Source: Dehalococcoidales bacterium
GTDB lineage: Bacteria; Chloroflexota; Dehalococcoidia; Dehalococcoidales; RBG-16-60-22
Length of the DNA stretch: 60,919 bases
Direction: 5' to 3'
Assembly: GCA_034430375.1 (NCBI GenBank)
Contig: DAOUER010000038.1
Location: 1-60,919 of the forward strand
Numbering within the stretch: the first letter of the stretch is position 1; each line of letters begins with the position of its first letter. The position numbers and the translations under genes are program-made. Below the pieces are notes generated by a model. That model ran no database searches. It saw only the letters and a program-made list of their open reading frames with translations, and was not told the DNA's origin. This document shows, piece after piece, positions 7,621 to 55,286 of the stretch.

Positions 7621-7965
7621 TTAGAGTTCTTCCTCTTCCTCATCGGGTTTATAGAAAGATTCCAGTTGCTTATTTAGCAGTTCATAATCCTCAGTCGGCT
7701 GAGGTTTCCCTAGTGACATGCCATAACTGACGAAGAATTGAAGGAAGTTATGCAGCAGTTCCATCATCTGTCGGTTGAAATATTCAATCTCTTCTCGGGT
7801 CACATAGTGTTGCTGATTTTCTTGATCTTTTAGCTGACATTGAATGAGGTAATTTACAAATTCGGTACGGTTCAGTTCACCGCGGTTTTCATCTATTTGC
7901 TTGACTACATCTTCCTTAACGACCATAATCAGGTCGTTTTCTTCAAGTAAAATGGTCCTTCTCAT
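7621..7965 (-). CDS. Small hypothetical protein, possible ribbon-helix-helix DNA-binding protein
   Basis: IMVVKEDVVKQIDENRGELNRTEFVNYLI fits a strand-helix-helix RHH pattern. ATG 7965 has a GAGG RBS; the ORF track start is 8010. Confidence 0.5.
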   Translation of the reverse strand: MRRTILLEENDLIMVVKEDVVKQIDENRGELNRTEFVNYLIQCQLKDQENQQHYVTREEIEYFNRQMMELLHNFLQFFVSYGMSLGKPQPTEDYELLNKQLESFYKPDEEEEEL

Positions 7966-42042: not shown

Positions 42043-44349
42043 ATGGCCAGAAAAGTAAAAAATAAAAGTACCAGGCCGAAAACAGCTAGGAAACCGATAA
42101 AATCCCCGGAAAACCGCAGTTTCTGGCGTATCCTGATATCTACGCCGGTACGCCAGCTGTGGATGACGGCTATTATCGTGGTTCTCCTGGCGGTATTCTG
42201 GGAAAGCATCGTCGACGGCTTTAATACCCTTGTAGAACTCTTCGGTATCGGCCTGGCATTTATCATAGCCGCTATCATCACTCTGATTGTGATTATCTGG
42301 AAGAAGAAACTGTCCACGCTTCTTTTCCGCTGGTACCGCTGGCTGGCGGGAGTGGTATTTGTTCTGGCGGTATGGGGTATGCTGGCTTTTTCACCGGTAA
42401 GTGATATGTTCCCTAACACCCTGGGAGGAAAATTCGGGCAAGAGATAATAGCCTTTCCCGCCGACGCTATCGGTATTTTACGCATAATTGGTCTTATCAT
42501 CGTCGGCGTCGTTCTTATGGTGCCGCGGGAAAGCCTGCAGGTTGTTTCCGGATTTTTTACCTGGCTTTGGGAGTTATTTCAGAGAAAACCGGCGCCGATA
42601 CGTAAAATACAGGACAGCCATCCGGTACCCCGGATTGTAAATCCCAGGACTCCGGATACCAAACCTCCTCTACCGAAAGAACTGGACGTACCGCTTATCG
42701 CCCCCGAGGTCTCGGCATCCCGCGCCAATCTGGAAGCTTTAGCCGAAAAAGCCTCGGCTTTAAAAGCGATCGCCGGTAAATCCGCCGTTTCATCATCTCC
42801 CCAGGGTACCCGGAGTGAATTAAAGCAGGTGGCTGAAGAAGTATGGCGGAAATATGGACAGGCCCCCAATCTGGAAATCGTGGACGGCTGGAAACTACCC
42901 CCGATTGATATCCTCGATATGGCCCCGGAGGTAGAATTCACCGATGCCGATAATGTGCAGCGGGCCAGGATGATAGAAGATGCTTTAGCCAGTTACGGGG
43001 TCGATGCCAAGGTCGTGCAGATAAACGCCGGCCCTACGGTTACCCAGTTTGGCGTCGAACCGGGCTGGGACCGGAAATATAAAGAGATTAAAGAAAAAGA
43101 CAAGGACGGCAACGTGCAGGTCACCATGGCCGAGGTGTCCAAGACCAGGGTCAAGGTAGACAGAATCTCTTCTCTGGCCAATGACATGGCCCTGGCGCTG
43201 GCGGCGCCCAGCATCAGGATAGAAGCCCCGGTACCGGGTAAATCCATCGTCGGTATTGAAGTGCCTAATACTACCTCAGACATGGTTAGTCTGCGGGGTG
43301 TTGTAGAGACAAATCCCTTCCAGAAATCACTGGTGAAGTCCAGGCTGACTCTGGCACTTGGCAAGGGTGCCGGCGGTGAAACAATCGCCTCAGACCTGGC
43401 TAAAATGCCGCATCTTCTGATAGCCGGGGCCACCGGCAGCGGTAAAACGGTATGCCTTAATACCGTTATCTGCTGTTTGTTAATGCACAATACCCCCAAT
43501 GACATCCGCTTCATTCTCATCGACCCCAAGAGGGTTGAATTAACGCAGTACAACAGCATCCCCCACCTGGCGACGCCGGTTATCGTTGATACCAATAAAG
43601 CCCTTAATGTCCTGCGCTGGCTGGTGCAGGAGATGGAGGAACGGTATAAGAAATTAGCGGCCGACGGGTCCCGTCACATCGAGGGTTATAATAAGAACCG
43701 GCATGGAGATGAAAAACTGCCCTACCTGATTCTGATTATCGATGAGCTAGCCGACCTCATGATGGCTGGCTTTGACGAGGTGGAGAGTAATCTCTGCCGG
43801 TTAGCCCAGCTGGCCCGTGCCACCGGTATTCATCTGGTCGTGGCTACCCAGCGTCCGTCGGTGGATGTGGTTACCGGCTTGATTAAAGCCAATTTCCCCA
43901 CGCGTATGAGCTTTGCGGTCACTTCGCAGGTAGATTCACGCACCATCCTGGACGGAACCGGTGCGGAAAAACTGCTGGGCCGGGGCGATATGCTCTTCCT
44001 TCCCACCGAAGCCTCCAAGCCAAAACGACTTCAAGGCTGTTTTCTTTCCGACCCCGAGATTGAAAGACTTGTCTACTTCTGGAATAACCAGGAGAGAGAA
44101 GAACCCGACAAACTCAAACTGGAGACTCTCATCGCCGCCACGCCGCCCGGTACGGTCGGCGGACACCCGCGAGACCCGCTGCTGGAGCAGGCCAAAGAAC
44201 TCGCCAAGAACAGCAATATGTCAACATCATTCCTGCAGCGACGACTCCACATCGGCTACCCGAGGGCCGCCCGTCTCATGGAACAGCTGGAAGCCGAACT
44301 TGCCCGGGAAGAGCCGGTCGCGGAACCGGAACACGAAATTGAAGAATAA
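42043..44349 (+). CDS. ftsK: DNA translocase FtsK/SpoIIIE
   Basis: N-terminal TMs; PHLLIAGATGSGK, IDPKRVEL, DELADLM, ATQRPS, LLGRGDML; gamma domain STSFLQRRLHIGYPRAARL. Confidence 0.95.
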   Translation: MARKVKNKSTRPKTARKPIKSPENRSFWRILISTPVRQLWMTAIIVVLLAVFWESIVDGFNTLVELFGIGLAFIIAAIITLIVIIWKKKLSTLLFRWYRWLAGVVFVLAVWGMLAFSPVSDMFPNTLGGKFGQEIIAFPADAIGILRIIGLIIVGVVLMVPRESLQVVSGFFTWLWELFQRKPAPIRKIQDSHPVPRIVNPRTPDTKPPLPKELDVPLIAPEVSASRANLEALAEKASALKAIAGKSAVSSSPQGTRSELKQVAEEVWRKYGQAPNLEIVDGWKLPPIDILDMAPEVEFTDADNVQRARMIEDALASYGVDAKVVQINAGPTVTQFGVEPGWDRKYKEIKEKDKDGNVQVTMAEVSKTRVKVDRISSLANDMALALAAPSIRIEAPVPGKSIVGIEVPNTTSDMVSLRGVVETNPFQKSLVKSRLTLALGKGAGGETIASDLAKMPHLLIAGATGSGKTVCLNTVICCLLMHNTPNDIRFILIDPKRVELTQYNSIPHLATPVIVDTNKALNVLRWLVQEMEERYKKLAADGSRHIEGYNKNRHGDEKLPYLILIIDELADLMMAGFDEVESNLCRLAQLARATGIHLVVATQRPSVDVVTGLIKANFPTRMSFAVTSQVDSRTILDGTGAEKLLGRGDMLFLPTEASKPKRLQGCFLSDPEIERLVYFWNNQEREEPDKLKLETLIAATPPGTVGGHPRDPLLEQAKELAKNSNMSTSFLQRRLHIGYPRAARLMEQLEAELAREEPVAEPEHEIEE

Positions 44350-44548
44350 CGCCCCGTTTTTGATTAACGGAGACTCTGAATACGTTTTATTGACAAGATT
44401 ATCAAGAATATATTCTGGACGATTATGATTCCCATAGACTTTCTTTTTAGTGACAGGTCAGGGCTACGAAAAGCCCAAGAAAAAGACTGGAGCAAACACA
44501 AGTATGATATAATCCGGCACCAGCGCTTTCGCTAAAAAGCTCCGGGCA

Positions 44549-45568
44549 TTAATTCTCGAGTTGCTCCACAACATATCCAGCTTCTTCCAGCAGGTTTAAT
44601 AGCCCCTCTTCACCAACAAGGTGCCCGGCACCCACGACGATAAAGTATATCTCGTCACCCTCTAGAAAACCTTCGATTTTTTCGAGCATCATATAATTAC
44701 GATTGGTAAACAGGGCTTCAAAATAAGGCAACAGTTCCGGTTCCTCGTAAAGTCCTTCGAATAACAGCTCTTCCATAGCTGCCGAATCGCCGTTTTCCCA
44801 GATTTCCAGCAACTCTTCAATATCTTCACCAGTATCCGGTTCGTCCAGGTTCATTTCCATCATCTTTATCATGACATCATCGGGTACATCGGCAAGTAGT
44901 TTTATCTGAAACTCCTCTGTTTCCAATTCAACTATTTCCAGGTTTTTCACTTCACCGGCTTCCAGAAAATGCATGTCTATGCCGTAGTCCGCCGTATAAC
45001 CCATTTCCTGCAATGAAGTAACGTCCAGAATATTAGCAATAAACCAGGGCCGGTAAGAATCCAGAATAGCCAGACTGATACCCCATTCTGCTAATCGTTC
45101 ATCTAATTCTTCATAGAGGTCTTCCGGAAGAATTTCCTGAAGTCTTTCCCCCGACGGATAGGTAGCATACTCCAATATCAGTGCCGCCGATTCCAGTACA
45201 TCAACTTCATTAATATTAACCTCGACGACGAGAATATCAGATTCGGCAAAAGCATTTTCTATAATCCCGGCCAGGGGATAAGTATCGGCATCGGCTACGT
45301 GAACTGAACCCAGCAGGTATACGTACGTGTCTGCCGATGTTATCTTCCAGATAAATGATTGCCCCGATTCATCTGCCGGAGTAGTCGGGAAAACGGTGGT
45401 TGTTTCCGGGGTGGTCGCTGTTGTTGGAACCGTCGTGGTTGTCGCTGGTGTAGGCTTAGCCGTTTCTGTAGCCGTATCATCCGGTGCGGAGCAGTCAATA
45501 CATAAAAAACTCAGCAGTAATACCAGGGCCACCGGTAGAATGTGTTTTATAGGTTTACACCGGTACAT
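44549..45568 (-). CDS. TraB/GumN-family exported protein
   Basis: Signal peptide, Thr/Pro linker, YLLGSVH, GIDMHF, LET, RNYMM, VGAGHLVG. Confidence 0.88.
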   Translation of the reverse strand: MYRCKPIKHILPVALVLLLSFLCIDCSAPDDTATETAKPTPATTTTVPTTATTPETTTVFPTTPADESGQSFIWKITSADTYVYLLGSVHVADADTYPLAGIIENAFAESDILVVEVNINEVDVLESAALILEYATYPSGERLQEILPEDLYEELDERLAEWGISLAILDSYRPWFIANILDVTSLQEMGYTADYGIDMHFLEAGEVKNLEIVELETEEFQIKLLADVPDDVMIKMMEMNLDEPDTGEDIEELLEIWENGDSAAMEELLFEGLYEEPELLPYFEALFTNRNYMMLEKIEGFLEGDEIYFIVVGAGHLVGEEGLLNLLEEAGYVVEQLEN

Positions 45569-45700
45569 ATAATCGACTCCCGGTACGCTTTATTCTCTGG
45601 TTTTAAGACGTGAATATTATAACACAGGTCAACACCGCATTTAGGTATTTAGGGGATTCGTAAATAGTAAAAATGTTTAGAAAATGGTACGGGTGGTTTT

Positions 45701-46288
45701 CTACCAAATATACTCGTATATACCGAAGACAATTGTGACGATAGCACTGGCCAGCAACGCCCCGGTAAATACCTGGGCCGGGGTATGCAGCTTCATCTCT
45801 ATCCTCGCCCAGGCTACCAGCGGAACCAGCAGTACCGTCCAGGCCGCCATTCCACCGTAGACGATGATTAACACCGTCACCGAGCCGGTGATAAAAGCGG
45901 TATGCAGGCTGATTTTCCAGAAAAGGTTGATAGCCATGAATACTATCACGGTCGCCAGCCCGGCGGCGAACGTAGCTACTAATAACTCCGGCGCATTCAG
46001 CACCACGAGAACGATATAGCCGAGAACGGCACAACAGATGGCTAATATATAAATTCTGTGTCTTTGCTGACGGGGATGTATAAATATACCGTCGAGTTTT
46101 TTCTTGGAAACCAGGTATATCACCACTGCAAAGACAGGAAATACGCTCAGGGCCAGGCCAATTAACGACCATTTAACAGCTTCATCCGTAGAGGTTGTCG
46201 ATTCCATGGCGAGGAGAACGAGAATTATCAGACTCAACAGAAAAGGATTGAGAATATTGGTGGCTATCCTGGCTAGTCTTCGTTTCAT
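45701..46288 (-). CDS. PAP2-like multi-pass membrane protein
   Basis: KISLH, WAR...HT pattern; start moved to ATG 46288. Confidence 0.7.
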   Translation of the reverse strand: MKRRLARIATNILNPFLLSLIILVLLAMESTTSTDEAVKWSLIGLALSVFPVFAVVIYLVSKKKLDGIFIHPRQQRHRIYILAICCAVLGYIVLVVLNAPELLVATFAAGLATVIVFMAINLFWKISLHTAFITGSVTVLIIVYGGMAAWTVLLVPLVAWARIEMKLHTPAQVFTGALLASAIVTIVFGIYEYIW

Positions 46289-46371
46289 AAGCGTATCAGT
46301 ACACGACATTTTACCACATGATATAATAGGAATTGAATTTACCGGGTAATCTAATACCGGAGAATAAGAAT

Positions 46372-47013
46372 ATGACAACGATAATTAACGACGAAGACAT
46401 CCGTATCGATAAGCTTCAGCTGGGACCTTACGGTACCAATTGCTATACCGTAGTCTGTAACCAGACCCGGGAAAGCCTGGTGATAGATGCTCCCGCCGAA
46501 AGTGAAATAATAATGGGTAATTTGAAGGGCACTAATCCAAAGTACATCTTCCTCACTCACGACCATATGGACCATACCGGGGCGCTGGAGGCATTAAGGG
46601 GCGGACTGGGCGTACCCCTGGCTGCCCACACTCTGGATTCCAGGAGTATCTCTCCCCCGCCCGAGATATTTCTGAATGACGGCGACGCTTTGGCGGTGGG
46701 GAATCTCGATTTCAAGGTATTGCATACCCCCGGTCATACGCCGGGCGGGCTGTGTTTACTTTGGGGATTGCACCTGTTCTCCGGTGATACGCTTTTCCCG
46801 GGGGGTCCAGGCCGGACATGGTCACCGGACGCATTCCACCAGATTATCGATTCGTTAAACAATAAAGTATTCGTCCTGCCTGAAGAAACCCGGATATATC
46901 CCGGGCATGGTGAAATAACGGTTCTCAAGAAAGAAAAAGGAGAGTTCTCTGTTTTCACTTCCCGTGAGCATAGTCCCGATTTATGCGGCGACATTCTCTG
47001 GCTGACTTCCTAG
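46372..47013 (+). CDS. MBL-fold metallo-hydrolase
   Basis: THDHMDH, HTPGHT, SGDTLFPGG, YPGHG. Confidence 0.9.
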   Translation: MTTIINDEDIRIDKLQLGPYGTNCYTVVCNQTRESLVIDAPAESEIIMGNLKGTNPKYIFLTHDHMDHTGALEALRGGLGVPLAAHTLDSRSISPPPEIFLNDGDALAVGNLDFKVLHTPGHTPGGLCLLWGLHLFSGDTLFPGGPGRTWSPDAFHQIIDSLNNKVFVLPEETRIYPGHGEITVLKKEKGEFSVFTSREHSPDLCGDILWLTS

Positions 47014-47025
47014 TCTATTAGACTG

Positions 47026-47727
47026 TTAGTATCTCATCTGGATACGGTGAAAGGCTTCCCCCAGTTCATAATCCTGGTCTTCGGCCATCATCTTAGCCCA
47101 GTCCCGTAACCGGTCTCTCATTTCCAGGGGTATATCACCTACCTGGCTGATATGGCAGCCCAGGGCTTTTATCTTGATATCGAATGTATCGGTAACATCA
47201 GAGTAATGATTGGCGTCATCGGCACCCCACAGCCACACCTCCCTGACCTTATGCGGCTCCAGTCCTTCTTCCAGCAGGTCCGGGTATGATAAATGGTCGC
47301 GGGCATAGGGAAAGACCGCATCCATCACCACCTGGCCGGTAACACGGTGGTCGCGGTGCCACATGTATTTCCGGTACGGATTGGCCGTCACCACTACCTC
47401 CGGCCGGTACTGCCGTATCAAACGCACCAGGGCTTTACGAAACTCCGGTGTATCTTCCAGTCCCTGGTCCGGTAAACGCATAAACTCTACTTTGGTTACT
47501 CCCAATAGCCTGGCCGCATTCAACTGCTCTTTTTCCCTGATTTTAGCCAGTTCTTCCGGCTTCATATTACGGTCGCTGGTCCCCTTATCTCCGTTGGTAC
47601 AAACTACATATACTACTTTTTTACCCTCCCGCGTCAGCTTGACGACCGTACCGGCTACACCGAATTCGGCGTCATCCGGGTGCGGTGTAACGACCATCAT
47701 ATAAATGTCATTCTCCATTACAGGCAT
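47026..47727 (-). CDS. PIG-L family deacetylase (MshB/BshB-like)
   Basis: PHPDDAEFG, TNGDKG, HRDH; ATG 47727 follows a GAGGAG RBS. Confidence 0.88.
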   Translation of the reverse strand: MPVMENDIYMMVVTPHPDDAEFGVAGTVVKLTREGKKVVYVVCTNGDKGTSDRNMKPEELAKIREKEQLNAARLLGVTKVEFMRLPDQGLEDTPEFRKALVRLIRQYRPEVVVTANPYRKYMWHRDHRVTGQVVMDAVFPYARDHLSYPDLLEEGLEPHKVREVWLWGADDANHYSDVTDTFDIKIKALGCHISQVGDIPLEMRDRLRDWAKMMAEDQDYELGEAFHRIQMRY

Positions 47728-47755
47728 AACTCCTCGATATATCGGTGGACACATA

Positions 47756-47765
47756 AATTGTATAA
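47756..47765 (+). repeat. attL core AATTGTATAA
   Basis: Identical to 54311-54320; followed by the inner arm ...AATTGCACACGT. Confidence 0.88.
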
Positions 47766-47886
47766 AATTGCACACGTAGAATTCAAGCAAAAATGTATGA
47801 ATTATGACAAGATAATCCAGGGTCGCAAAAAGTTAGCTCAGGGAGAACTCAAGGGTGAGCTATCGTTGGCAGGAATTACAGCATGA
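47756..47886 (+). pseudogene. Detached 3' end of the integrase gene (40-aa tail, rejoined on excision)
   Basis: After the att core the frame reads KIAHVEFKQKCMNYDKIIQGRKKLAQGELKGELSLAGITA* and is in frame with integrase codons L431-Y432. Confidence 0.75.
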
Positions 47887-47990
47887 GGAGATTCGACCCC
47901 ATCAATGACGATATGCCCGGTCAGGAAGACGATGACGAAGATGAACCATGGTATTACTCGATAACTAAAACATCGCATATTTCCATCTGA
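47883..47990 (+). CDS. 35-aa acidic peptide coupled (ATGA overlap) to the stop of the circular-form integrase
   Basis: Manual translation MRRFDPINDDMPGQEDDDEDEPWYYSITKTSHISI*; AGGA upstream. Confidence 0.45.
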   Translation: MRRFDPINDDMPGQEDDDEDEPWYYSITKTSHISI

Positions 47991-48020
47991 GGAGCAGCAA
48001 AAATAGTCCCTGAATATATA

Positions 48021-48050
48021 TTGACAAAGAGCAAGTGTCATAGGTAAAAT
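48021..48050 (+). promoter_or_regulatory. Element promoter with overlapping operator-like inverted repeat
   Basis: TTGACA (48021) - 18 bp - TAAAAT (48045); TGACA-N9-TGTCA at 48022-48040. Confidence 0.65.
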
Positions 48051-48102
48051 TAAGAGAATAGACGCAAGACATTAAAAAAATAATAAGCGACCCACTTCTA
48101 AG

Positions 48103-48137
48103 TCCGGTAGCCGATGGCAAAGCTACCGGATTTTTTT
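48103..48137 (+). terminator. Intrinsic terminator between promoter and first element ORF
   Basis: TCCGGTAGC-10 nt-GCTACCGGA followed by T7. Confidence 0.8.
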
Positions 48138-48151
48138 ATTAGGGAGGAATA

Positions 48152-48337
48152 ATGCAGAATACGCAGAATATCAGGTCAGGAAGCAGAAGGGCAATCAAAA
48201 ATGGCACTGGCATCATAGTTTGTCTACCGCAGAAGTTCGTGAAAATGGCTGGTATCCAGCGGGGTGACCGGCTGGGCATTGTCTATGATGCCAGGAGCAT
48301 CACGTTCGTAAGTCGGCCTAAACCAGAGGGGAATTAG
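48152..48337 (+). CDS. AbrB/MazE/SpoVT-like DNA-binding protein
   Basis: GIIVCLPQKFVKMAGIQRGDRLGIVYD swapped-hairpin pattern; GGGAGG RBS. Confidence 0.75.
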   Translation: MQNTQNIRSGSRRAIKNGTGIIVCLPQKFVKMAGIQRGDRLGIVYDARSITFVSRPKPEGN

Positions 48338-48338
48338 C

Positions 48339-49259
48339 ATGGCTAAAAAATATGGAAACGGCGGATATCTCTACGAGGGGGATGAGCTAATGAAAATGCA
48401 ATCTGACCAGGAATGGGTCTGTAGAAACTGGATACCAAGAACCGGTAGGACATTGCTGATAGCGCAATCCAAGGTTGGCAAAACCAAGTTGGCGGTGTTT
48501 ATCGCCGATAAGGTAGCCAGGGGTGAGGACGTTTTTAACTTTGATACGGAAAAGGGTGTTGTCCTGTACGCAGCGTTGGAGCGGTGGAACGACTTCAGGG
48601 AGAAGCTACGTGACGCAACCGGTGGTAAAGTGCCGTCTAATCTCAAGACTCTTGAATACACCGAACCCCTAGTACTAGACAGTGATGATGATAAGGGATT
48701 TAACATTCTAAAACAAGTGATTTTTGATGTAAAGCCGGTGTTGGTTATCCTCGACTCGAAATTCCGAACTACAGCCAAAGGCGATAACGATGAGCCAGCT
48801 ACGATTATCTGGACTAATCGTATCAATAAGCTCATCAAAGATTGTGACTGCGCCTTCCTTATCCTGCACCACGTGCCCAAAACGAAATATAAGCAACTCG
48901 TGGACCGGGCAGCAGGTACGTCTTATCTATCCCGGTGGGCTGATGTTATTATCGGCATGAAAAGGGCTGACGAAAAAGACAAAAGGAACCCTGACCGCAT
49001 ATTGGAATTCGTCAGCAATTCCGGATATGAACCAGACGATATCACGGTTGAAATCACCGACGTCGGAATTGTTGAAACCATCATCGACCCACTGCAATTA
49101 CTGCAGACGGCTAAGGTGTTAGATGCAGTGGATTTACTGAAAAATGCCCTGCAAAAAGACTGCAAACTCAAGCCAAGTAAAACCATCAGGGAGCTATCAA
49201 AACTGCACAAGATAAGCGAAAGGACGTTCTGGGAGGCGTGGAAGTATGTTAAACCTTAA
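48339..49259 (+). CDS. AAA/RecA-fold (RepA-like) replicative helicase with C-terminal HTH-like region
   Basis: Walker A AQSKVGKT, VLYAALE, LVILDS (Walker B), LILHH, GTSYLSRWAD. Confidence 0.82.
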   Translation: MAKKYGNGGYLYEGDELMKMQSDQEWVCRNWIPRTGRTLLIAQSKVGKTKLAVFIADKVARGEDVFNFDTEKGVVLYAALERWNDFREKLRDATGGKVPSNLKTLEYTEPLVLDSDDDKGFNILKQVIFDVKPVLVILDSKFRTTAKGDNDEPATIIWTNRINKLIKDCDCAFLILHHVPKTKYKQLVDRAAGTSYLSRWADVIIGMKRADEKDKRNPDRILEFVSNSGYEPDDITVEITDVGIVETIIDPLQLLQTAKVLDAVDLLKNALQKDCKLKPSKTIRELSKLHKISERTFWEAWKYVKP

Positions 49260-49345
49260 TATATATATATATATATATTATATATTTGCAGTATGCAGTG
49301 ATGCAGTGTTTACAGTAGTGCAGTAGTGATTACTGCAACACTGCA
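49256..49345. repeat. Candidate replication origin: 32-bp pure A/T tract plus TGCAGT hexamer array
   Basis: A/T only from 49256 to 49287; TGCAGT at 49287, 49294, 49302, 49319, variant TACAGT at 49311, inverted ACTGCA at 49332 and 49340. Confidence 0.65.
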
Positions 49346-49367
49346 ATGGTTTAAGGGGGGTAAAGGT

Positions 49368-49439
49368 ATGATTGAAAACTGGACAATAATTGGAATGATA
49401 TTTTTACAGATTTTCTTAAAACTAGGGGGTGTAACATGA
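49368..49439 (+). CDS. 23-aa hydrophobic peptide
   Basis: MIENWTIIGMIFLQIFLKLGGVT*; G-rich RBS; ATGA overlap with the next ORF. Confidence 0.45.
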   Translation: MIENWTIIGMIFLQIFLKLGGVT

Positions 49440-49618
49440 GTGGATTAAAGGTAGGTGCAAATTGTTTTTTCAAATACCAGGTGAATGACGGCACCCGAAT
49501 TTTGGATTGTAGCGGAACAATCAACAAAGACCTGGAAGACCGCTATATTTTGCGGGATAGCAACAAGAAATCAAAGGTGCTCTGGAAAGATAAAATTGTG
49601 GAGGTAGTTATATTATGA
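49436..49618 (+). CDS. Hypothetical 60-aa beta-rich protein
   Basis: GGGGGT RBS; start and stop coupled to neighbours on both sides. Confidence 0.6.
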   Translation: MSGLKVGANCFFKYQVNDGTRILDCSGTINKDLEDRYILRDSNKKSKVLWKDKIVEVVIL

Positions 49619-50517
49619 AGCTATTTAAGCGGAAGAAGAAAGAGAGAGGAAGCTACAGGACAGCTGCTGACAAACTGAAGGAAGAACGAGCAAAAATCGA
49701 CATTACCCTGGCTAGGGCATTTCAAGAGGATTTGCGAACCCACCCATCTTTCACTCGCGAAATCGCCAGGAGGAAATTTGGTTTAGCTGGGCTGGAACAG
49801 GACAATGATCACTATGACGCTACACCGGTACAGCCGGACATCATGGAACTTATCCAACAATTCAGAGAAATCAAAACTGCTTTCCAGGAGGAATTCCCGG
49901 AAAAATCTGGCTCTTGGTTACAGGAAATAGCTGCCATTGCCCCAGCCATCATTGGAGCGTTAAAAGAAATGCGCCCACAGCAATCGCCACAACAACCGGA
50001 ATATTACCCGGCACCATCACAGCGACTCACTTCTACACAACCCAAGCGTATTGAGAGAACACAGGAGCCACCACCGGAACCACCACAATCGACACCGGAA
50101 CAGCCCGAACAACCCGGCACACCACAGCAAACAGAACTTGATACCACTGTTTATCAGCCAGACATCGAAGAAGCCTCTTTGGATGAGGTGAAAAATTTCG
50201 TGGAGAATATATTAGCGTTGACCCCTGAGGAAGCTACCGCCGAATTATACCTGGGCAGTAATATTGAGGGTGATTTTAGGGCTACCATCTGGCAATACCT
50301 TAGCGAAAACGACATTGACTCGCTCTGGAAACAATTACCACTGTTGGAATCGCTACCAGAGGTCGAGAAATTCAGCCCCATTATCGCTAAATTAACCAAC
50401 GACAAGACTAAAATCTGGCTATCGTTGGTTATCGATGAAATAAATCTGGTTAATTCTGGTGAAAAGACTATTGAAATTAGCGAAAATCAACCTGGAAATG
50501 ATGTTAATAACGCGTGA
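49615..50517 (+). CDS. Hypothetical 300-aa protein: basic N-terminus, amphipathic helix, Pro/Gln linker, acidic helical C-terminus
   Basis: GGAGG RBS; long ORF; no family recognised. Confidence 0.75.
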   Translation: MKLFKRKKKERGSYRTAADKLKEERAKIDITLARAFQEDLRTHPSFTREIARRKFGLAGLEQDNDHYDATPVQPDIMELIQQFREIKTAFQEEFPEKSGSWLQEIAAIAPAIIGALKEMRPQQSPQQPEYYPAPSQRLTSTQPKRIERTQEPPPEPPQSTPEQPEQPGTPQQTELDTTVYQPDIEEASLDEVKNFVENILALTPEEATAELYLGSNIEGDFRATIWQYLSENDIDSLWKQLPLLESLPEVEKFSPIIAKLTNDKTKIWLSLVIDEINLVNSGEKTIEISENQPGNDVNNA

Positions 50518-50618
50518 AAGTGGTTACAGGCGTGTTTTAAGCAAATCCACAATATATAATGAGGATTACGGAGTGCCGGAGGCACGGAGTAATCCGATTA
50601 TCGAAAATAGGAGGTACC

Positions 50619-50909
50619 ATGCCAAATTGTCCATATTGTAAGGAATGGCTACTGACTGAAGATACGCTGGAGGCTCATATTCGGGAAAAGCATTCTGACC
50701 TGATACCAGATGCCGAAAGACTGATGTCGGCCTACGCCGGTACACTCACCAAGCCAATCGTGTCAGCCATTTTACTGGGCATTAGCTTGAAATATAAAGC
50801 TGAGCCCAGCGAGGTTATTTTCCAATATTTGGAGATGTTAGGAATGCTCGACCACCTTGGGGCTGATGTGGACGATGTCCTTGAGGATGAGGGGGAGTCA
50901 GAAGAATAA
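50619..50909 (+). CDS. C2H2 zinc-finger protein
   Basis: AGGAGG RBS; CPYC-x12-H-x4-H; acidic tail. Confidence 0.75.
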   Translation: MPNCPYCKEWLLTEDTLEAHIREKHSDLIPDAERLMSAYAGTLTKPIVSAILLGISLKYKAEPSEVIFQYLEMLGMLDHLGADVDDVLEDEGESEE

Positions 50910-50989
50910 CATTGGTTGCGGGGACATGCATAAATTGCCCCTGAGGGTGGGCTTGAGGTAAAAATTGTCAATGTGATGAGTAAATAAAA

Positions 50990-51019
50990 TGTCCGGGGCT
51001 TCCAGTCCAACCCCGGACA
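50990..51019 (-). terminator. Hairpin between convergent element genes
   Basis: TGTCCGGGG-12 nt-CCCCGGACA with a T-rich tail on the minus strand. Confidence 0.65.
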
Positions 51020-51044
51020 CAGCTACAATGTGGCTTAGTCTGGA

Positions 51045-51521
51045 CTACGAGCCAGGAGCGGTGCCACCCTCGCAGGCTATCAGTGTGATAACCAAACCTT
51101 CGACGTCACCACCGATAGCATCGGCGTCAATAGCCAGGGTGACTTCTTTATCTTGGGCACCATCCGGAGCAAAGGAAGAAATCAGAAGTTTATCGATAGT
51201 TGGGTCTTCGAAGTCTCCAAGGTCTGGCCCCCACATCCAAGCGGACACGACATTCTCAGGGTCAGTTAATCGCGCGTACAAACTGACGTTGGCGTTCCCA
51301 GTGTTCGTGACTGAAATTGTTACCATGGCAGTTTCACCACCGGGGTCGGCATCACCGAAATCAATCACAGCTGGAATGACCTCGATACTTCCGATTGTAT
51401 TAATGTGTAAACTACTTGGAACCTCGGTAGAAAACAATGTGGCGGCTAATACTCCACCGCCAATCAGTAATGCCCCAATGATGGCGAAGATGAATATTTG
51501 CCTGAAAATAGACTTGAACAT
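51045..51521 (-). CDS. Exported or membrane-anchored acidic beta-sandwich protein
   Basis: GGGAGG RBS before ATG 51521; signal/TM IFIFAIIGALLIGGGVLAA; IDFGDADPGG...TISVTNTGNANVSL Ig-like pattern. Confidence 0.75.
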   Translation of the reverse strand: MFKSIFRQIFIFAIIGALLIGGGVLAATLFSTEVPSSLHINTIGSIEVIPAVIDFGDADPGGETAMVTISVTNTGNANVSLYARLTDPENVVSAWMWGPDLGDFEDPTIDKLLISSFAPDGAQDKEVTLAIDADAIGGDVEGLVITLIACEGGTAPGS

Positions 51522-51645
51522 ATTTGACCTCCCGTTTTGATTTATCGATTGAGCTGACTGGCGCACAATCATTTTATATTATGGTAACCAGTCTCAAAAA
51601 TCAAGCCAATTGGCGAAAATAGTGCGCACAATGAGCCATTTGTCC

Positions 51646-51674
51646 TTGACAATGGGTATTATTCTGTGATAATT
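51646..51674 (+). promoter_or_regulatory. Promoter of the xis/membrane-protein/int operon
   Basis: TTGACA followed about 17 bp later by GATAAT, upstream of a GGAGG RBS and ATG 51717. Coordinates approximate. Confidence 0.55.
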
Positions 51675-51716
51675 TATTATATGGCAGACACACATTCAAA
51701 CAGCGGAGGTCAAGAT

Positions 51717-51911
51717 ATGGAGTCCAAATTGCGCACTTTTGTAACAGTGGAACAAGCATCAAGAATCTTGGATGTGCATCCACAGACAGTGAGAAATTGG
51801 TACCGCCTAGGGTTAATCAGGAAGCTACAGCCAAATCCAAATGGCGGTAAAGTTTTTCTCCGATATAGCGATGTTCTTGAGCTTGTGGGGGGAGAATACG
51901 AAGATGAATAA
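51717..51911 (+). CDS. Excisionase-like MerR-type HTH protein
   Basis: VTVEQASRILDVHPQTVRNWYRLGLI...KVFLRYSDV. Confidence 0.85.
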   Translation: MESKLRTFVTVEQASRILDVHPQTVRNWYRLGLIRKLQPNPNGGKVFLRYSDVLELVGGEYEDE

Positions 51912-52149
51912 ACTCGGAGGAAGCCTTCAGCAACGGTCAACAACATCGACTGTAAGCGCATACAAAGGGCGCGGTGGCTTATATTCCCATACGCGTCGCC
52001 TCCAAGTGGGCAACAAAAAATTCGTGCGTACGGTCGATTGCGCACGGAGCTCTTATGCATTTTCAGTTGCCTTAAATTTAGTTGGTGAAGGGGCGGAGTT
52101 TTTGCCTCCTCCGCCCCAACCACCAGGGAGTAAAGATGAAGTTAGATAA
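51904..52149 (+). CDS. Hypothetical 81-aa basic protein
   Basis: ATG overlaps the xis stop; GGGGGAG RBS; stop overlaps the next start region. Confidence 0.5.
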   Translation: MNKLGGSLQQRSTTSTVSAYKGRGGLYSHTRRLQVGNKKFVRTVDCARSSYAFSVALNLVGEGAEFLPPPPQPPGSKDEVR

Positions 52150-52567
52150 ACTACTTACATTATTAATAGTAATAGCAGTTGGCTATTTGCTATATCGAGA
52201 AATCCAGCGCAATAAAAGTAATACCACGCAGATAGCCGGCACAGGAAGCGAAGGGAACCCAGTAAAGCTGGAATTGGAAATGGGTAGCTCACCATTCGCT
52301 CAGACATTCACAGTAAAGTCTGTGCCGAAACGATTCCCGGTTGCCAAGCCTACCAACGGTGAGTTAATGATTTCGACAGCCATAACCAATGCTGGCGACG
52401 TTTATATCGCTGATAGCTACGGAAGTGCTGAAGCTGGCATTCATCGATTTATGATTGAAGCTGGGAATCTCATAAATCTGGGCGTCACCAACCTTGCCGA
52501 CTGGTATTATTACGGAACTGCTGACGATATCTTCTCCATAGCTGGAGAAGTGGAAAATTTCGCCTAA
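52136..52567 (+). CDS. N-terminally membrane-anchored beta-rich protein
   Basis: GGGAG RBS; TM LLTLLIVIAVGYLLY, then a Gly/aromatic beta-rich domain. Confidence 0.75.
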   Translation: MKLDKLLTLLIVIAVGYLLYREIQRNKSNTTQIAGTGSEGNPVKLELEMGSSPFAQTFTVKSVPKRFPVAKPTNGELMISTAITNAGDVYIADSYGSAEAGIHRFMIEAGNLINLGVTNLADWYYYGTADDIFSIAGEVENFA

Positions 52568-52579
52568 AGGAGGGACAAC

Positions 52580-52966
52580 ATGGAAGGATATTTAGACAAT
52601 CCATACGAGGGATATTTAGACAATCCATACTATGATGAGGAATTGATATTGGATGAACCAAAGCCGAAGCGGAGACGCAAAAGCGCTCCCACAACGGAGA
52701 TTAGCCTCTCTGCATTGGTGTTGGTGGGCTTAGTTGGTTTATTAATCTGGTTCAAGCACACCCGGGGCATCTACCCCTGGCAAACGGAAATCGCCAGACG
52801 GTCTATCAGACCGGCTCTCGGCCCGGCTAGCAAAATGGGAATCAGACCAAACACCAGTGGCCACCCGATGAAATCACCAACTCAGGTTGGCATGGTAACT
52901 AACGTTCCCACTGACGTTAGGCCGGGTCATGGTGAGACTGATATATATCCAATCTCACCTTGGTAA
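52580..52966 (+). CDS. Single-pass membrane protein with tandem EGYLDNPY repeat
   Basis: GGAGGG RBS; EGYLDNPY twice; KPKRRRK; TM LSALVLVGLVGLLIWF. Confidence 0.75.
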   Translation: MEGYLDNPYEGYLDNPYYDEELILDEPKPKRRRKSAPTTEISLSALVLVGLVGLLIWFKHTRGIYPWQTEIARRSIRPALGPASKMGIRPNTSGHPMKSPTQVGMVTNVPTDVRPGHGETDIYPISPW

Positions 52967-53022
52967 CTAAAATTGATAACTAAAATTAACCAGGAGCAAT
53001 TTATCATAATGGAGGAAAAAAA

Positions 53023-54345
53023 ATGAAAGCACCAACCAAAACACACCAAGATTTCGATGTGGAAACACCATCCACCCTCAGACAATTCCTGGTCGAAGAA
53101 CTAAGCACCAACAACCAGGAACGCGTAAGGCGTAATCTGCCAATCGAACACTACAATGACGAAGACATCAACCAGCTAATGCCGAAGGTGTTCGCTCACA
53201 TTGAATCCAAAGCTTTGGAGCTATACAAATCTAACGAACCCTGGGCAATCAGGGAATATATCGTCCAACACATCTTGAGAGAACCCGTTGCCAGCGAAGA
53301 CAATATCAGGGTAGCCGGTGAAATATCCAAGCCCGTCGAACGGTGGCAAAGTGATACATTCGACCCGCTACAGCAAATGCGCCTCAAGCTGGAAGTCAGT
53401 CGCAAATCACGTGGATACATCAGGGAGCTAATGCGTCCGGCGAAATGGTTCGTTTCCGATGCTGGTCGCAAGAGGCGCTACACTGAGAATGAGATACTGC
53501 AATTTGTCAGGAAGCTGGCAAATAGATATGACAAGAGGGATGCGAAAGGCCACATCATAACTGAGGGCAGAGACACTAGTTCATTCGTCACCAAAATTTC
53601 TCAATTCAAACGATTCCTGGACTTACTACCGGAAGATGAGCTAACTGGCAGAAAGCAGGTTATCCCCTTTGAATTACCCAAGCTCCCCGATAAATTCAAT
53701 CAGCCAATATTCTCGCATGAAGATATCGAGCTAATCATCTACAAGGCCATCATGGATTTTAAGCCAGAGACGGTTTTACGCATGGCGTTAGCTACTGTCT
53801 ATGGCTGTCGAGTTGGTGAAATTGCATACATGGATTCCAGCAATATTGACTTGAAAACCATGACAGTGAATATCCCCACTGAAAAGAAGGGAGTGCGCAA
53901 GCCTCAGCCAATCCCGCCATCACTAAAGCCCCTATTCATGGTGCCACTGCATAAAACCAGAGACGCAAACATCAATAACCAACTGAAAGCCATCTGTAAG
54001 AAAGCCCGGATACCCTGGCTAAAAGGAATGGGCTGTCACGCCATCCGGCGAGCAGTCGTGACCATATTATATGGTGAAACTGGACTGAAAGAACTGCACA
54101 TCAAACGCTTCATGCGATGGTCTCAAGGCAGAGGTATGGGCGTCATGCCTCGATATATCAGGATACCAACTGAAACGACAGATGCTGAAGTGCTTGAAGT
54201 CCACCCATTCCGGAAAATGTGGGAGCAGATGATACCCTTCATTGAATACATGCCACAATGGGCTGACGCACGTTACCTTCCGGAGTGGAAGGATATAAGC
54301 TCACGTGTGCAATTGTATAACATTACCCAAATTGATACAATGTGA
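53023..54345 (+). CDS. Tyrosine recombinase/integrase of the element (integrated form, 440 aa)
   Basis: YGCRVGEI (R), TEKK (K), HAIRR (HxxR), RFMRWS (W in place of the second H), MPRYI (Y); the att core lies in its last codons. Confidence 0.9.
   Translation: MKAPTKTHQDFDVETPSTLRQFLVEELSTNNQERVRRNLPIEHYNDEDINQLMPKVFAHIESKALELYKSNEPWAIREYIVQHILREPVASEDNIRVAGEISKPVERWQSDTFDPLQQMRLKLEVSRKSRGYIRELMRPAKWFVSDAGRKRRYTENEILQFVRKLANRYDKRDAKGHIITEGRDTSSFVTKISQFKRFLDLLPEDELTGRKQVIPFELPKLPDKFNQPIFSHEDIELIIYKAIMDFKPETVLRMALATVYGCRVGEIAYMDSSNIDLKTMTVNIPTEKKGVRKPQPIPPSLKPLFMVPLHKTRDANINNQLKAICKKARIPWLKGMGCHAIRRAVVTILYGETGLKELHIKRFMRWSQGRGMGVMPRYIRIPTETTDAEVLEVHPFRKMWEQMIPFIEYMPQWADARYLPEWKDISSRVQLYNITQIDTM
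54311..54320 (+). repeat. attR core AATTGTATAA
   Basis: Identical to 47756-47765; preceded by the inner arm ACGTGTGC. Confidence 0.88.
54313..54341 (+). promoter_or_regulatory. Sigma70-type promoter of the mshD-like gene, overlapping attR
   Basis: TTGTAT (54313) - 17 bp - TACAAT (54336). Confidence 0.55.
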
Positions 54346-54368
54346 ACGGGAGACTACAACCACCTGCC

Positions 54369-55286
54369 ATGTCAGATACCGGATACAGCATCAGGAATTA
54401 CAGGCCGGAAGATTTTGATGGATATGTCCTTCTCTGCCAGGAATCTAATGAACTGGGACCTTCCGGACACCCGGCTTCGCCGGAAATAGCCCGAAAATGG
54501 CTGTCCTGGCCTTATTACTCACCGGAAAAGGACCTGTTCCTCCTGAAGAAGGACGGCGAATTAATCGGGAGCCTCGATCTACGCCCCGAACCGGATATCA
54601 ATCGCGTCATTATCAGGTGCTGGGTACACCCCGAGTACCGGCGACAGGGCCTTGGGAATCAACTCTTCGAACGCGCCTTCCAGCGTGCCGTTGAACTCGG
54701 GGTTGAATATATTAACATCAATGTACCCGGCAACAACAACGTTGCCAGAATCGTCCTGTCCCGATACGGATTCAAACCCATTCGTCGTTATCTTGATTTG
54801 AAACTCGATATACTCAAGATAAACAGTAAAGATATCGATAATGCATCCCGTGAATGCCGATGCCTGGAAAGCGGCGAGGAAAATGAACTGTCGCGTGTGC
54901 AAAACCTGGCCTTTGACGGACACTGGGGCTATCATCCCAATACCCCGGAAACAATAGCTTTCTATACTCAGTTAGGTACACCGACGACGGATAATATCAT
55001 CCTCTCCTGCGAAGAAGACAAGATAGTCGGCTACTGCTGGGTGGAAATACTACCCGGTGATGAACCTGCCGGGGAAATCCACATGATAGGTGCCGACCCG
55101 GCATACCAGGGCCAAGGAATCGGCCGGAAGGTCCTGCTGGCCGGATTGGCCTATCTCCGGGAAAAGGGGATATCAACGGCTTATCTAAGCGTGGACAGCG
55201 AGAATAAATCGGCACTCAACCTGTATGATTCGCTGGGATTTGAGCTACACCGTAAAACCCTCTGGTACGAAAAGAAGGTATCTTAA
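54369..55286 (+). CDS. Tandem-GNAT acetyltransferase, MshD-like
   Basis: Two GNAT repeats; EIHMIGADPAYQGQGIG, YLSVDSENKSALNLYDSLGF. ORF track start is GTG 54342. Confidence 0.8.
   Translation: MSDTGYSIRNYRPEDFDGYVLLCQESNELGPSGHPASPEIARKWLSWPYYSPEKDLFLLKKDGELIGSLDLRPEPDINRVIIRCWVHPEYRRQGLGNQLFERAFQRAVELGVEYININVPGNNNVARIVLSRYGFKPIRRYLDLKLDILKINSKDIDNASRECRCLESGEENELSRVQNLAFDGHWGYHPNTPETIAFYTQLGTPTTDNIILSCEEDKIVGYCWVEILPGDEPAGEIHMIGADPAYQGQGIGRKVLLAGLAYLREKGISTAYLSVDSENKSALNLYDSLGFELHRKTLWYEKKVS

Follow-up and report, generated by a model that had tools for sequence, protein, structure and literature searches.

A Chloroflexota mobile element with a palindromic attP core apparently placed inside its own integrase gene

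INTRODUCTION

In the Myxococcus phage Mx8, the attachment site attP lies within the integrase gene int, and integration creates a new int 3′ end (PMC6070905). In archaeal integrases of the SSV and pTN3 types, attP is also located inside the integrase gene, and these enzymes act alone and reversibly (PMC5861418, PMC8371274); according to a review, self-disrupting integrases are known only in archaea, and an att site within int is presented there as an archaeal specialty (PMC8371274). The present study concerns a mobile element of 6,555 bp, located at positions 47766-54320 of a 60,919-nucleotide stretch from a Dehalococcoidales bacterium (Chloroflexota; GCA_034430375.1, contig DAOUER010000038.1; the whole stretch is hereafter called the window). 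Excision of this element would rebuild a perfectly palindromic attP core, and this core appears to lie within the reading frame of its integrase, Int.

A palindromic core with a weaker host site, attB, is standard for tyrosine recombinases, and the palindrome, which had been noticed in an earlier reading of the window from sequence alone (the sequence-only reading), is ordinary when taken by itself. To our knowledge, the rewriting of the enzyme C terminus by an attP inside int is documented in bacteria essentially only for Mx8. The prophage form of the Mx8 enzyme, IntX, was reportedly found to be less active and to stabilize lysogeny (attributed to Magrini et al., 1999), and Mx8 is said to swap ~112 residues for 13 and to need arm sequences on both sides of the core.

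The window element appears to share with Mx8 a bacterial setting, an attP core within int, and the creation of a new int 3′ end without loss of catalytic residues. It differs from Mx8 in that its integrase family would swap 23-51 residues, that the core is a clean palindrome, and that arm-type sites were not detected. No sequence relationship with Mx8 was detectable (tblastn against 50,697 phage records, E ≤ 1e-3), and the resemblance is one of architecture, not of descent. As in the SSV- and pTN3-type systems, integration would place the two parts of a split int, int(N) and int(C), at the two ends of the element, and integrase, site, and direction control would form one compact module. However, the SSV/pTN3 split separates or inactivates the enzyme, whereas the window Int keeps all catalytic residues in the large fragment and loses only a tail. 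The window also differs from the SSV type in having no match to Pfam PF16795 (Phage_integr_3), in the canonical R..HxxR..Y tetrad of its Int, and in the bacterial neighborhoods of the family. The window integrase family is thus a member of neither the Mx8 nor the SSV/pTN3 group.

RESULTS AND DISCUSSION

Junctions of the element and the empty host site

The element is present in the samples JGI 3300031652, 3300031585, and 3300031698 and SRR8556254 and SRR9700687. It is bounded by a 10-bp direct repeat, AATTGTATAA, and the features at its two ends are listed below.

47748..47777, plus strand: attL, GACACATAAATT-GTATAA-AATTGCACACGT, comprising the host B arm (47748-47759), the 6-bp overlap GTATAA (47760-47765), and the element P′ arm AATTGCACACGT (47766-47777); seen in the sequence read, in the inverted-repeat pair, and by comparison with the empty site of contig L059
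54303..54332, plus strand: attR, ACGTGTGCAATT-GTATAA-CATTACCCAAAT, comprising the element P arm ACGTGTGCAATT (54303-54314), which contains the family half-site TGTGCAATT, the overlap GTATAA (54315-54320), and the host B′ arm CATTACCCAAAT (54321-54332); its host side can be aligned with empty sites
47756..47765: direct repeat AATTGTATAA, left-hand copy (crossover region)
54311..54320: direct repeat AATTGTATAA, right-hand copy
53023..54345, plus strand: int, prophage form (440 aa), a divergent tyrosine recombinase; last gene of the element, with an open reading frame (ORF) that reads through attR
47766..47886, plus strand: int(C) remnant, the last 40 codons of the 472-aa free-form Int, KIAHVEFKQKCMNYDKIIQGRKKLAQGELKGELSLAGITA*, separated from int by integration

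The inner arms at 47766-47777 and 54303-54314 are complementary without mismatch over exactly 12 bp, and the next base on each side is unpaired. When the right inner end was joined to the left inner end, the sequence obtained was ACGTGTGCAATT-GTATAA-AATTGCACACGT (the reconstructed attP), and a repeat search returned the same arm pair. The junctions predicted for excision are ACGTGTGCAATTGTATAAAATTGCACACGT for attP and ACATAAATTGTATAACATT for attB. A window-wide scan for 6-bp direct repeats that have an inverted repeat of 10 bp or more immediately inside them gave a single site, identical to the element junctions, and the analytic chance expectation is 0.012 (18 fixed positions, all pairs 1-15 kb apart). 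The junction palindrome is real and not a product of chance. The sequence-only reading had claimed that excision rebuilds a perfect inverted repeat with 12-bp arms and a 6-bp spacer, and that the reconstructed host site is not palindromic. The arms and coordinates of the former were verified in the sequence, and the latter holds as well: 4 of the 12 B-arm positions, all within AATT, agree with the P arm, and 7 of the 12 B′ positions agree with P′.

The uninterrupted host site, CACATAAATTGTATAACATT, was found in L059 (NCBI GCA_964445505.1, contig CAYUMB010000003.1), one of the contigs that encode the identical deacetylase, whose intergenic sequence reads ...ggtggacacataaattgtataacattcccc... / ...ggtggacacataaattgtataacattcccctagttgatacaatgtg... 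between the deacetylase and GNAT acetyltransferase genes that flank the insertion in the window. This contig aligned with the window over 44026-47769 (99.9% identity) and 54311-54683 (91% identity), and the two alignments overlapped only in the repeat. The length of the insertion is therefore exactly 6,555 bp, the reconstructed attB is correct, and the empty site holds a single repeat copy. Another empty site, in which both the divergent gene pair and the core are shared, was present in L011, a distant Dehalococcoidia metagenome-assembled genome (MAG) whose GNAT protein is 47% identical. In both empty sites, the deacetylase gene directly adjoins the GNAT gene. An alignment of occupied and empty sites (A3) shows no variation in the host core AATTGTAT..CATT..TGATACAATG. 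As a separate observation, the divergence between L059 and the window jumps exactly at the att site, from 99.9% identity on the left of attB to 91% on the right; this step suggests either strain-level recombination or flanking DNA that was co-transferred with the element.

An attP core predicted within the int reading frame

In the prophage form, the last 8 codons of int and its stop codon are host DNA, and the stop lies 25 nt into the host sequence. When position 54320 was joined to 47766, the int frame stayed open to a TGA at 47884-47886, which would extend the window Int from 440 to 472 aa. The attP core accordingly sits within the int reading frame, with ~40 codons left to the stop, a position that the sequence-only reading overlooked. 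Because the core lies within this frame, each recombination would change the C terminus of Int. The catalytic residues are all kept in the prophage form, since Y378 is upstream of the junction and 432 of the 472 codons are in one ORF. The lengths of the two forms in five reconstructed elements are as follows.

Window: prophage form 440 aa, free form 472 aa
L030: prophage form 409 aa, free form 460 aa
L026: prophage form 416 aa, free form 455 aa
L027: prophage form 413 aa, free form 436 aa
L024: prophage form 420 aa, free form 463 aa

The free-form ORF is thus 23-51 codons longer than the prophage form. On the P′ side, the frame that continues int is the only long open frame in all five reconstructions, despite their differing frame offset. 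This frame contains 41 open codons in the window and 59, 40, 34, and 47 in the others, compared with 18 or fewer in the other frames (1 and 5 in the window). Furthermore, a contiguous free-form attP was detected in two metagenome contigs, and int reads through the core in both. In L074, which encodes Int P0008 (50% identical), the site is ttAATGCAATT-TAATAA-AATTGCATTca (AATGCAATT-TAATAA-AATTGCATT); in L075, which encodes P0063, it is aCTGCAATT-TAACAA-AATTGCAta (CTGCAATT-TAACAA-AATTGCA). The palindrome that the sequence-only reading had proposed to look for in circular contigs was therefore found in the free form of two relatives, although not for the window element itself. The free-form tails, both reconstructed and from L074 and L075, share the motif [IL][LF][KQ]xx[RKN]P[HWY]L, whose codons differ between elements mostly by synonymous changes. 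Examples are QILKDRPWLRK, QLLEKKPYLRV, GLFKARPHLRD, DILKENPHLEK, RLFQEKPHLKE, and EIYTRRSHLAK.

In the viral contigs of IMG/VR, the palindrome GTGCAATT-N6-AATTGCAC gave 13 matches, none of which was beside an integrase of the family (best tblastn E value 0.022, at an unrelated position); by our estimate, 13 is about the number expected by chance for 16 fixed bases.

Two minor features were observed next to these sites. A very acidic ORF of 35 aa (MRRFDPINDDMPGQEDDDEDEPWYY...) at 47883-47990 has its ATG (47883) overlapping the TGA of free-form int (47884-47886) in an ATGA arrangement, which suggests translational coupling that would occur in the excised form only. The spacer TAACAA is common to the free-form attP of L075 (250-280) and to the integrated element of L020 (ACGTCTACAATT-TAACAA-aaaggt, 2757-2786); these two elements, from different samples, may use the same host target site.

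The integrase and the control of direction

An alignment of 18 family members (A1) shows no variation at R263, K288, H339, R342, W366, and Y378, which constitute the catalytic set of tyrosine recombinases, with a canonical R..HxxR..Y tetrad. The window Int matched the PHROG_1 integrase family with an E value of 3.5e-10. Because its Pfam PF00589 score (20.4 bits) is below the cut-off (27.1), Int is regarded as a divergent member. An AlphaFold model based on alignment A1 (predicted local distance difference test [pLDDT] 78.6) consists entirely of helices up to the catalytic domain and contains no beta-type arm-binding domain. Archaeal XerA, Brujita Int, IntI, and XerH were the best Foldseek matches, ahead of lambda Int; the match probability was 1.0 for XerA, Brujita Int, IntI, and lambda Int alike. 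At the N terminus, residues 1-125 make up an additional helical region (~120 aa) with no family match. The family is small: a word-indexed search gave 22 family proteins and an exhaustive profile search gave 44 cluster representatives at E ≤ 1e-30; in the latter, the nearest neighbors outside the family are two-domain recombinases of ~275 aa. With tblastn, the window Int had no match in the phage records mentioned above (E ≤ 1e-3) nor in 72,556 plasmid records.

Brujita-type phages reportedly carry attP in the repressor gene, not in int. Brujita Int (PDB 5vfz) belongs to a subgroup of simple recombinases that is linked to mobile elements (PMC8138268). The best fold matches of the window Int are in this group of simple recombinases (Brujita Int, XerA, XerH, IntI, and Cre), which are two-domain enzymes (core-binding plus catalytic) without an arm-binding domain and use two inverted half-sites around a 6-8 bp spacer. 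However, identity to the Brujita, Xer, and IntI proteins is only 16-18%, and the window Int adds the ~120-aa helical N terminus and a C-terminal tail that depends on integration. Lambda-type systems (COC′/BOB′) also have inverted core half-sites, a short overlap identical in attP and attB, a weaker attB, and an excisionase-family gene; they differ in that the window Int is predicted to lack the beta-type arm-binding domain, no arm-type repeats were found, attP appears to be inside int rather than beside it, and the core arms are perfect 12-mers. As regards the description of the site as loxP/dif-like in the sequence-only reading, the two inverted 12-bp arms and the asymmetric 6-bp spacer agree with it. 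The recombining partners do not, since loxP × loxP and dif × dif join equal sites whereas attP and attB of the window are very unequal (4/12 and 7/12).

A gene that may bear on direction control is located upstream of int.

51666..51911, plus strand: HTH_17 excisionase-family protein (Pfam PF12728, E = 4.5e-7, 30.5 bits, above the cut-off)

This protein, the Xis-like protein of the sequence-only reading, is a candidate directionality factor, and HTH_17 genes are located immediately upstream of int in the relatives L007 and L017.

Taken together, we estimate a probability of about 0.85 that the element was inserted by its own tyrosine recombinase, that its attP core lies in int, and that the tail swap and the HTH_17 protein set the direction of recombination. 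The free attP core would consist of two inverted 12-bp Int half-sites (consensus TGTGCAATT) around the 6-bp overlap GTATAA, and Int dimers would bind these half-sites, as expected from established tyrosine-recombinase chemistry. The dimers would synapse with attB, which has the identical overlap, AATT on the B side, and the one recognizable half-site B′ (7/12). Strands would then be exchanged where the 6-7 bp overlap begins and ends, so that each junction keeps the 10-bp repeat together with one strong half-site. The free element would produce the 472-aa Int with the conserved C-terminal tail, while the prophage would produce the 440-aa Int, whose last 8 residues are host-encoded, and integration would strand the tail codons at the opposite (left) end. 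Direction would be set by the tail swap and the HTH_17 excisionase-like protein rather than by relative site quality, as in IntP/IntX of Mx8.

The half-sites bear directly on this point. Two strong half-sites are present in attP, at most one moderate half-site in attB, and one strong half-site each in attL and attR. By the logic of half-mutant lox sites, binding alone would favor excision, which yields a poorly bound attB. However, contigs encoding the identical GNAT protein were searched for an empty site or a free form, and all four were occupied. Some other control of direction is therefore needed. The sequence-only reading had proposed that site quality partly sets direction; this is not supported, since site quality alone would favor excision.

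A purely simple and directionless system of the Cre/Xer/Brujita kind would explain part of the data. In such a system, the 30-bp palindrome would be the whole attP, Int alone would act both ways, the balance would be set by binding, and the ORF across attP would be functionless. This is consistent with an Int model without an arm-binding domain, with XerA and Brujita Int as the best folds, and with ~275-aa two-domain recombinases as the nearest neighbors outside the family. Consistent with this, a search of both strands for repeated 9-mers (≤1 mismatch) up to 300 bp on either side of the window attP gave nothing in excess of shuffled sequences, so arm-type repeats are not above chance. However, the occupancy of every identical-GNAT contig is the reverse of what site quality would give, the element encodes an HTH_17 protein, and Int has its extra N-terminal region. 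In addition, the tail is open in 5/5 reconstructions and 2/2 observed attP contigs, with a conserved peptide motif. We therefore consider a directionless system rather unlikely. A simple Cre/Xer-like site, as the sequence-only reading had put it, is nevertheless plausible: the tyrosine recombinase, the symmetric 12-6-12 attP, the weaker attB, the arm-less model, and the lack of arm-type repeats all fit, while the HTH_17 gene and the N-terminal region leave "simple and directionless" unproven.

A more specific form of our preferred reading, which we offer tentatively and hold to be possible rather than probable, is that Int in this bacterial family is a self-editing enzyme whose own recombination is the directionality switch. 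Full-length Int could be produced by the free element only, its tail would let the arm-less Int capture the weak attB, and integration, by removing the tail codons, would lock the prophage. If so, excision would need Xis or full-length Int from a superinfecting relative, stable integration despite a symmetric attP and a degenerate attB would be explained, and bacteria would have a version of the "suicidal" integrase logic of archaea in which the enzyme is not killed.

Several points weigh against the reading in which the tail swap and the HTH_17 protein act on an attP core inside int. The sequences establish the exact junctions, the conserved half-sites, the restriction of identity to a 6-7 bp overlap, and the altered int frame, whereas we infer where cleavage occurs, that Int binds the arms, and that the two Int forms (472 and 440 aa) differ in function. 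No contiguous attP or excised circle of the window element was found, the observed free forms being contigs of relatives, and the window tail, KIIQGRKKLAQ, fits the family motif loosely. The cluster of the window Int has a single member, and a scan of IMG/VR viral contigs with the Int protein and the family alignment gave no relative. The N-terminal extension of the model could be an unrecognized accessory DNA-binding domain. L024 and L026 carry extra half-site copies ~50-70 bp from the core, and the att site may for that reason not be minimal. Finally, the host assignment is based on the 47%-identical GNAT protein in the Dehalococcoidia MAG and on bacterial neighbor genes in relatives (sigma-70, NusA-IF2-RbfA, S12-S7-EF-G, and FtsK).

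The att sites of an uncharacterized integrase family of sediment Chloroflexota are defined here to the base in the empty, occupied, and free-form states. Across the family, the attP core is inside int, where recombination would toggle a conserved C-terminal tail. With a 30-bp core, one enzyme of 440/472 aa, and one Xis candidate, the system is compact, which makes the question of how an arm-less integrase controls direction experimentally tractable. If the two Int forms differ in direction, a compact recombination tool would be possible.

Half-sites and att layout in related elements

The half-site TGTGCAATT (at least 7/9 positions) was found 19-52 nt before the int stop in 13 distinct integrases, followed by a variable 6-bp spacer, and it occurred in frames 0, 1, and 2. 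It is read as cgt gtg caa ttg (RVQL) in the window, gtg tgc aat (VCN) in L017, and tgt gca a (CA) in L027, L028, and L030. The prophage-form protein tails past the half-site vary in length and sequence (alignment A1). Because the half-site is conserved regardless of the reading frame, it is a cis-acting DNA element and not a protein motif.

This conservation also bears on the idea that the palindrome acts as an RNA hairpin in free-form int mRNA, controlling stability or translation, and not as a protein-binding DNA site. The 12-6-12 palindrome does fold at -18.9 kcal/mol (z = -5.1 versus shuffles). However, the prophage mRNA holds one arm only, yet that arm is conserved across the family in all three frames. 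The arms also coincide exactly with the recombination junctions, which an RNA role could accompany but cannot explain, and an intrinsic terminator is ruled out because no T run follows the palindrome. An RNA hairpin as the primary function is thus very improbable.

The attL/attR layout appears to be replicated in relatives, clearly in L030 and L026 and more loosely in L027 and L024/L015. In the 9.4-kb element of L030, attL is ggtcaatt-TCACAA-AATTGCACACGT and attR is ACCTGTGCAATT-TCACAA-tatcc, and the expected attL was matched at 17/18 positions. In L026, attL is ggcaat-GTCATA-TTTTGCAAATAC and attR is GTATTTGCAATT-GTCATA-atttt, with 16/18 positions of the expected attL. For L027, the expected attL was matched at only 13/18, a level also reached by unrelated sites in the window, and the assignment is based on the shared spacer TATGTA and near-palindromic junctions. 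For L024/L015, attL was matched at 12/18, tied with another site, and the assignment is based on a 12-bp direct repeat. The direct repeat in L026 and L027 is only 7 bp, that is, the spacer plus one base; the overlap is therefore at most 7 bp, and crossover is confined to the spacer region.

Three integrase lineages were found at the identical attB base position upstream of the GNAT gene, namely the window (P arm ACGTGTGCAATT), L076 (74% identical; GCATGTGCAATT), and L019/L001 (62%; CAATGTACAATT). A transposon or insertion sequence, with the 12-bp arms as transposase ends and GTATAA or AATTGTATAA as a target-site duplication, would formally give the same inverted-repeat ends, flanking short direct repeat, and empty site with one repeat copy, but we give it next to no credence and reject it, since the element has no transposase gene and a tyrosine recombinase as its sole recombinase, the three diverged lineages use exactly the same attB while the spacer of each relative matches its own target, L074 and L075 contain contiguous arm-spacer-arm sequences inside an intact int ORF, and family members retain the arm within int.

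Two further observations were made in these relatives. The junctions of L027 (7.8 kb) are each palindromic, TGCAATA-TATGTA-TATTGCA at 143-165 and TGTGCAAAA-TATGTA-ATTTGCACA at 7722-7745, and all four half-sites fit TGCAA[AT][AT]; because its attB resembles attP, this element may have integrated into a resident related site. In L007, an 11-nt inverted match to the arm located 300 bp downstream of int was considered as a second att site and rejected as coincidental, as it falls inside a molybdenum cofactor (Moco) riboswitch (RF01055, 77 bits; 3153-3269). This riboswitch is upstream of modABC-like transporter genes and just downstream of the related element.

Other genes of the element

The remaining genes of the element are listed below; no capsid gene was recognized among them, and the element appears to be plasmid-like or virus-like.

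48152..48337, plus strand: small AbrB/MazE-like putative DNA-binding regulator, first gene of a rightward operon (weak match to Pfam MazE_antitoxin, E = 0.021)
48339..49259, plus strand: AAA_25 (RepA/RecA-like) ATPase (Pfam PF13481, E = 6e-24; PHROG matches to primase/helicase families)
49615-50517: P/Q-rich protein of 300 aa, no family match
50559-50909: C2H2 zinc-finger protein, weak zinc-finger matches
51045-51572, minus strand: secreted protein of 175 aa, the sole minus-strand gene inside the element
52082-52567 and 52580-52966: two membrane-anchored proteins, no family match

A promoter-like sequence, TTGACA-18-TAAAAT, is present at 48021-48050, ahead of the gene for the AbrB/MazE-like protein. 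The AAA_25 ATPase is likely the replication protein of the element, and its gene is also present in the related elements L014 and L015. The 175-aa protein begins with a signal or anchor segment, is otherwise rich in beta structure, and has a weak "choice-of-anchor D" match (E = 3e-4); fn3-domain proteins occupy the same relative position in relatives, and a surface or structural role is possible. Where the gene for the 128-aa membrane protein starts, a 24-bp tandem duplication, GAAGGATATTTAGACAATCCATAC, was observed at 52583-52630 (two copies, 96% identical), giving a repeated EGYLDNPY. In the family member P0021 (277 aa, from a Logan contig), an AbrB/SpoVT-like N terminus (KILNVGGSRVLVIPRTIAEMLGISYGDEIGIV), which resembles the product of the window ORF at 48152-48337, is fused to the integrase from approximately residue 150; this protein would represent either a rearranged element or an assembly chimera.

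Host locus and promoter region

The host genes on both sides of attB, and a promoter-like site at attL, are as follows.

47026..47718, minus strand: PIG-L/BshB-like deacetylase, left of attB (Pfam PIG-L, E = 2.5e-36; NCBIfam BshB1-like, E = 8e-30)
54369..55286, plus strand: MshD-like tandem GNAT acetyltransferase, right of attB (Pfam Acetyltransf_1; NCBIfam MshD-like, E = 1e-30)
47757..47786, minus strand: hybrid promoter-like site at attL, TTGAAT-18-TACAAT (9/12 consensus matches; pattern match only)

An MshA-like glycosyltransferase gene is next after the GNAT gene. The element would thus sit in the divergent promoter region between BshB/MshB-like deacetylase and MshD-like acetyltransferase genes, in a Chloroflexota host resembling Dehalococcoidia. 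In the hybrid site at attL, the −35 box TTGAAT is derived from the element and the −10 box TACAAT is in the att core and host DNA; the site points toward the PIG-L gene. We also considered attB as symmetric overlapping sigma-70 promoters (−35 TTGTAT and −10 TACAAT on both strands) and rejected this, as a scan of L059 gave no promoter at threshold, which left a conserved inverted repeat with two TACAAT boxes as the sole remaining observation at attB. This host intergenic repeat, ATTGTAT-N16-ATACAAT (47757-47763 and 54334-54340 in the window; ~355-395 in L059), corresponds to two divergent TACAAT boxes, and its spacing is identical in the distant MAG L011. Because the crossover site is the left copy of this repeat, integration splits a probable promoter/operator.

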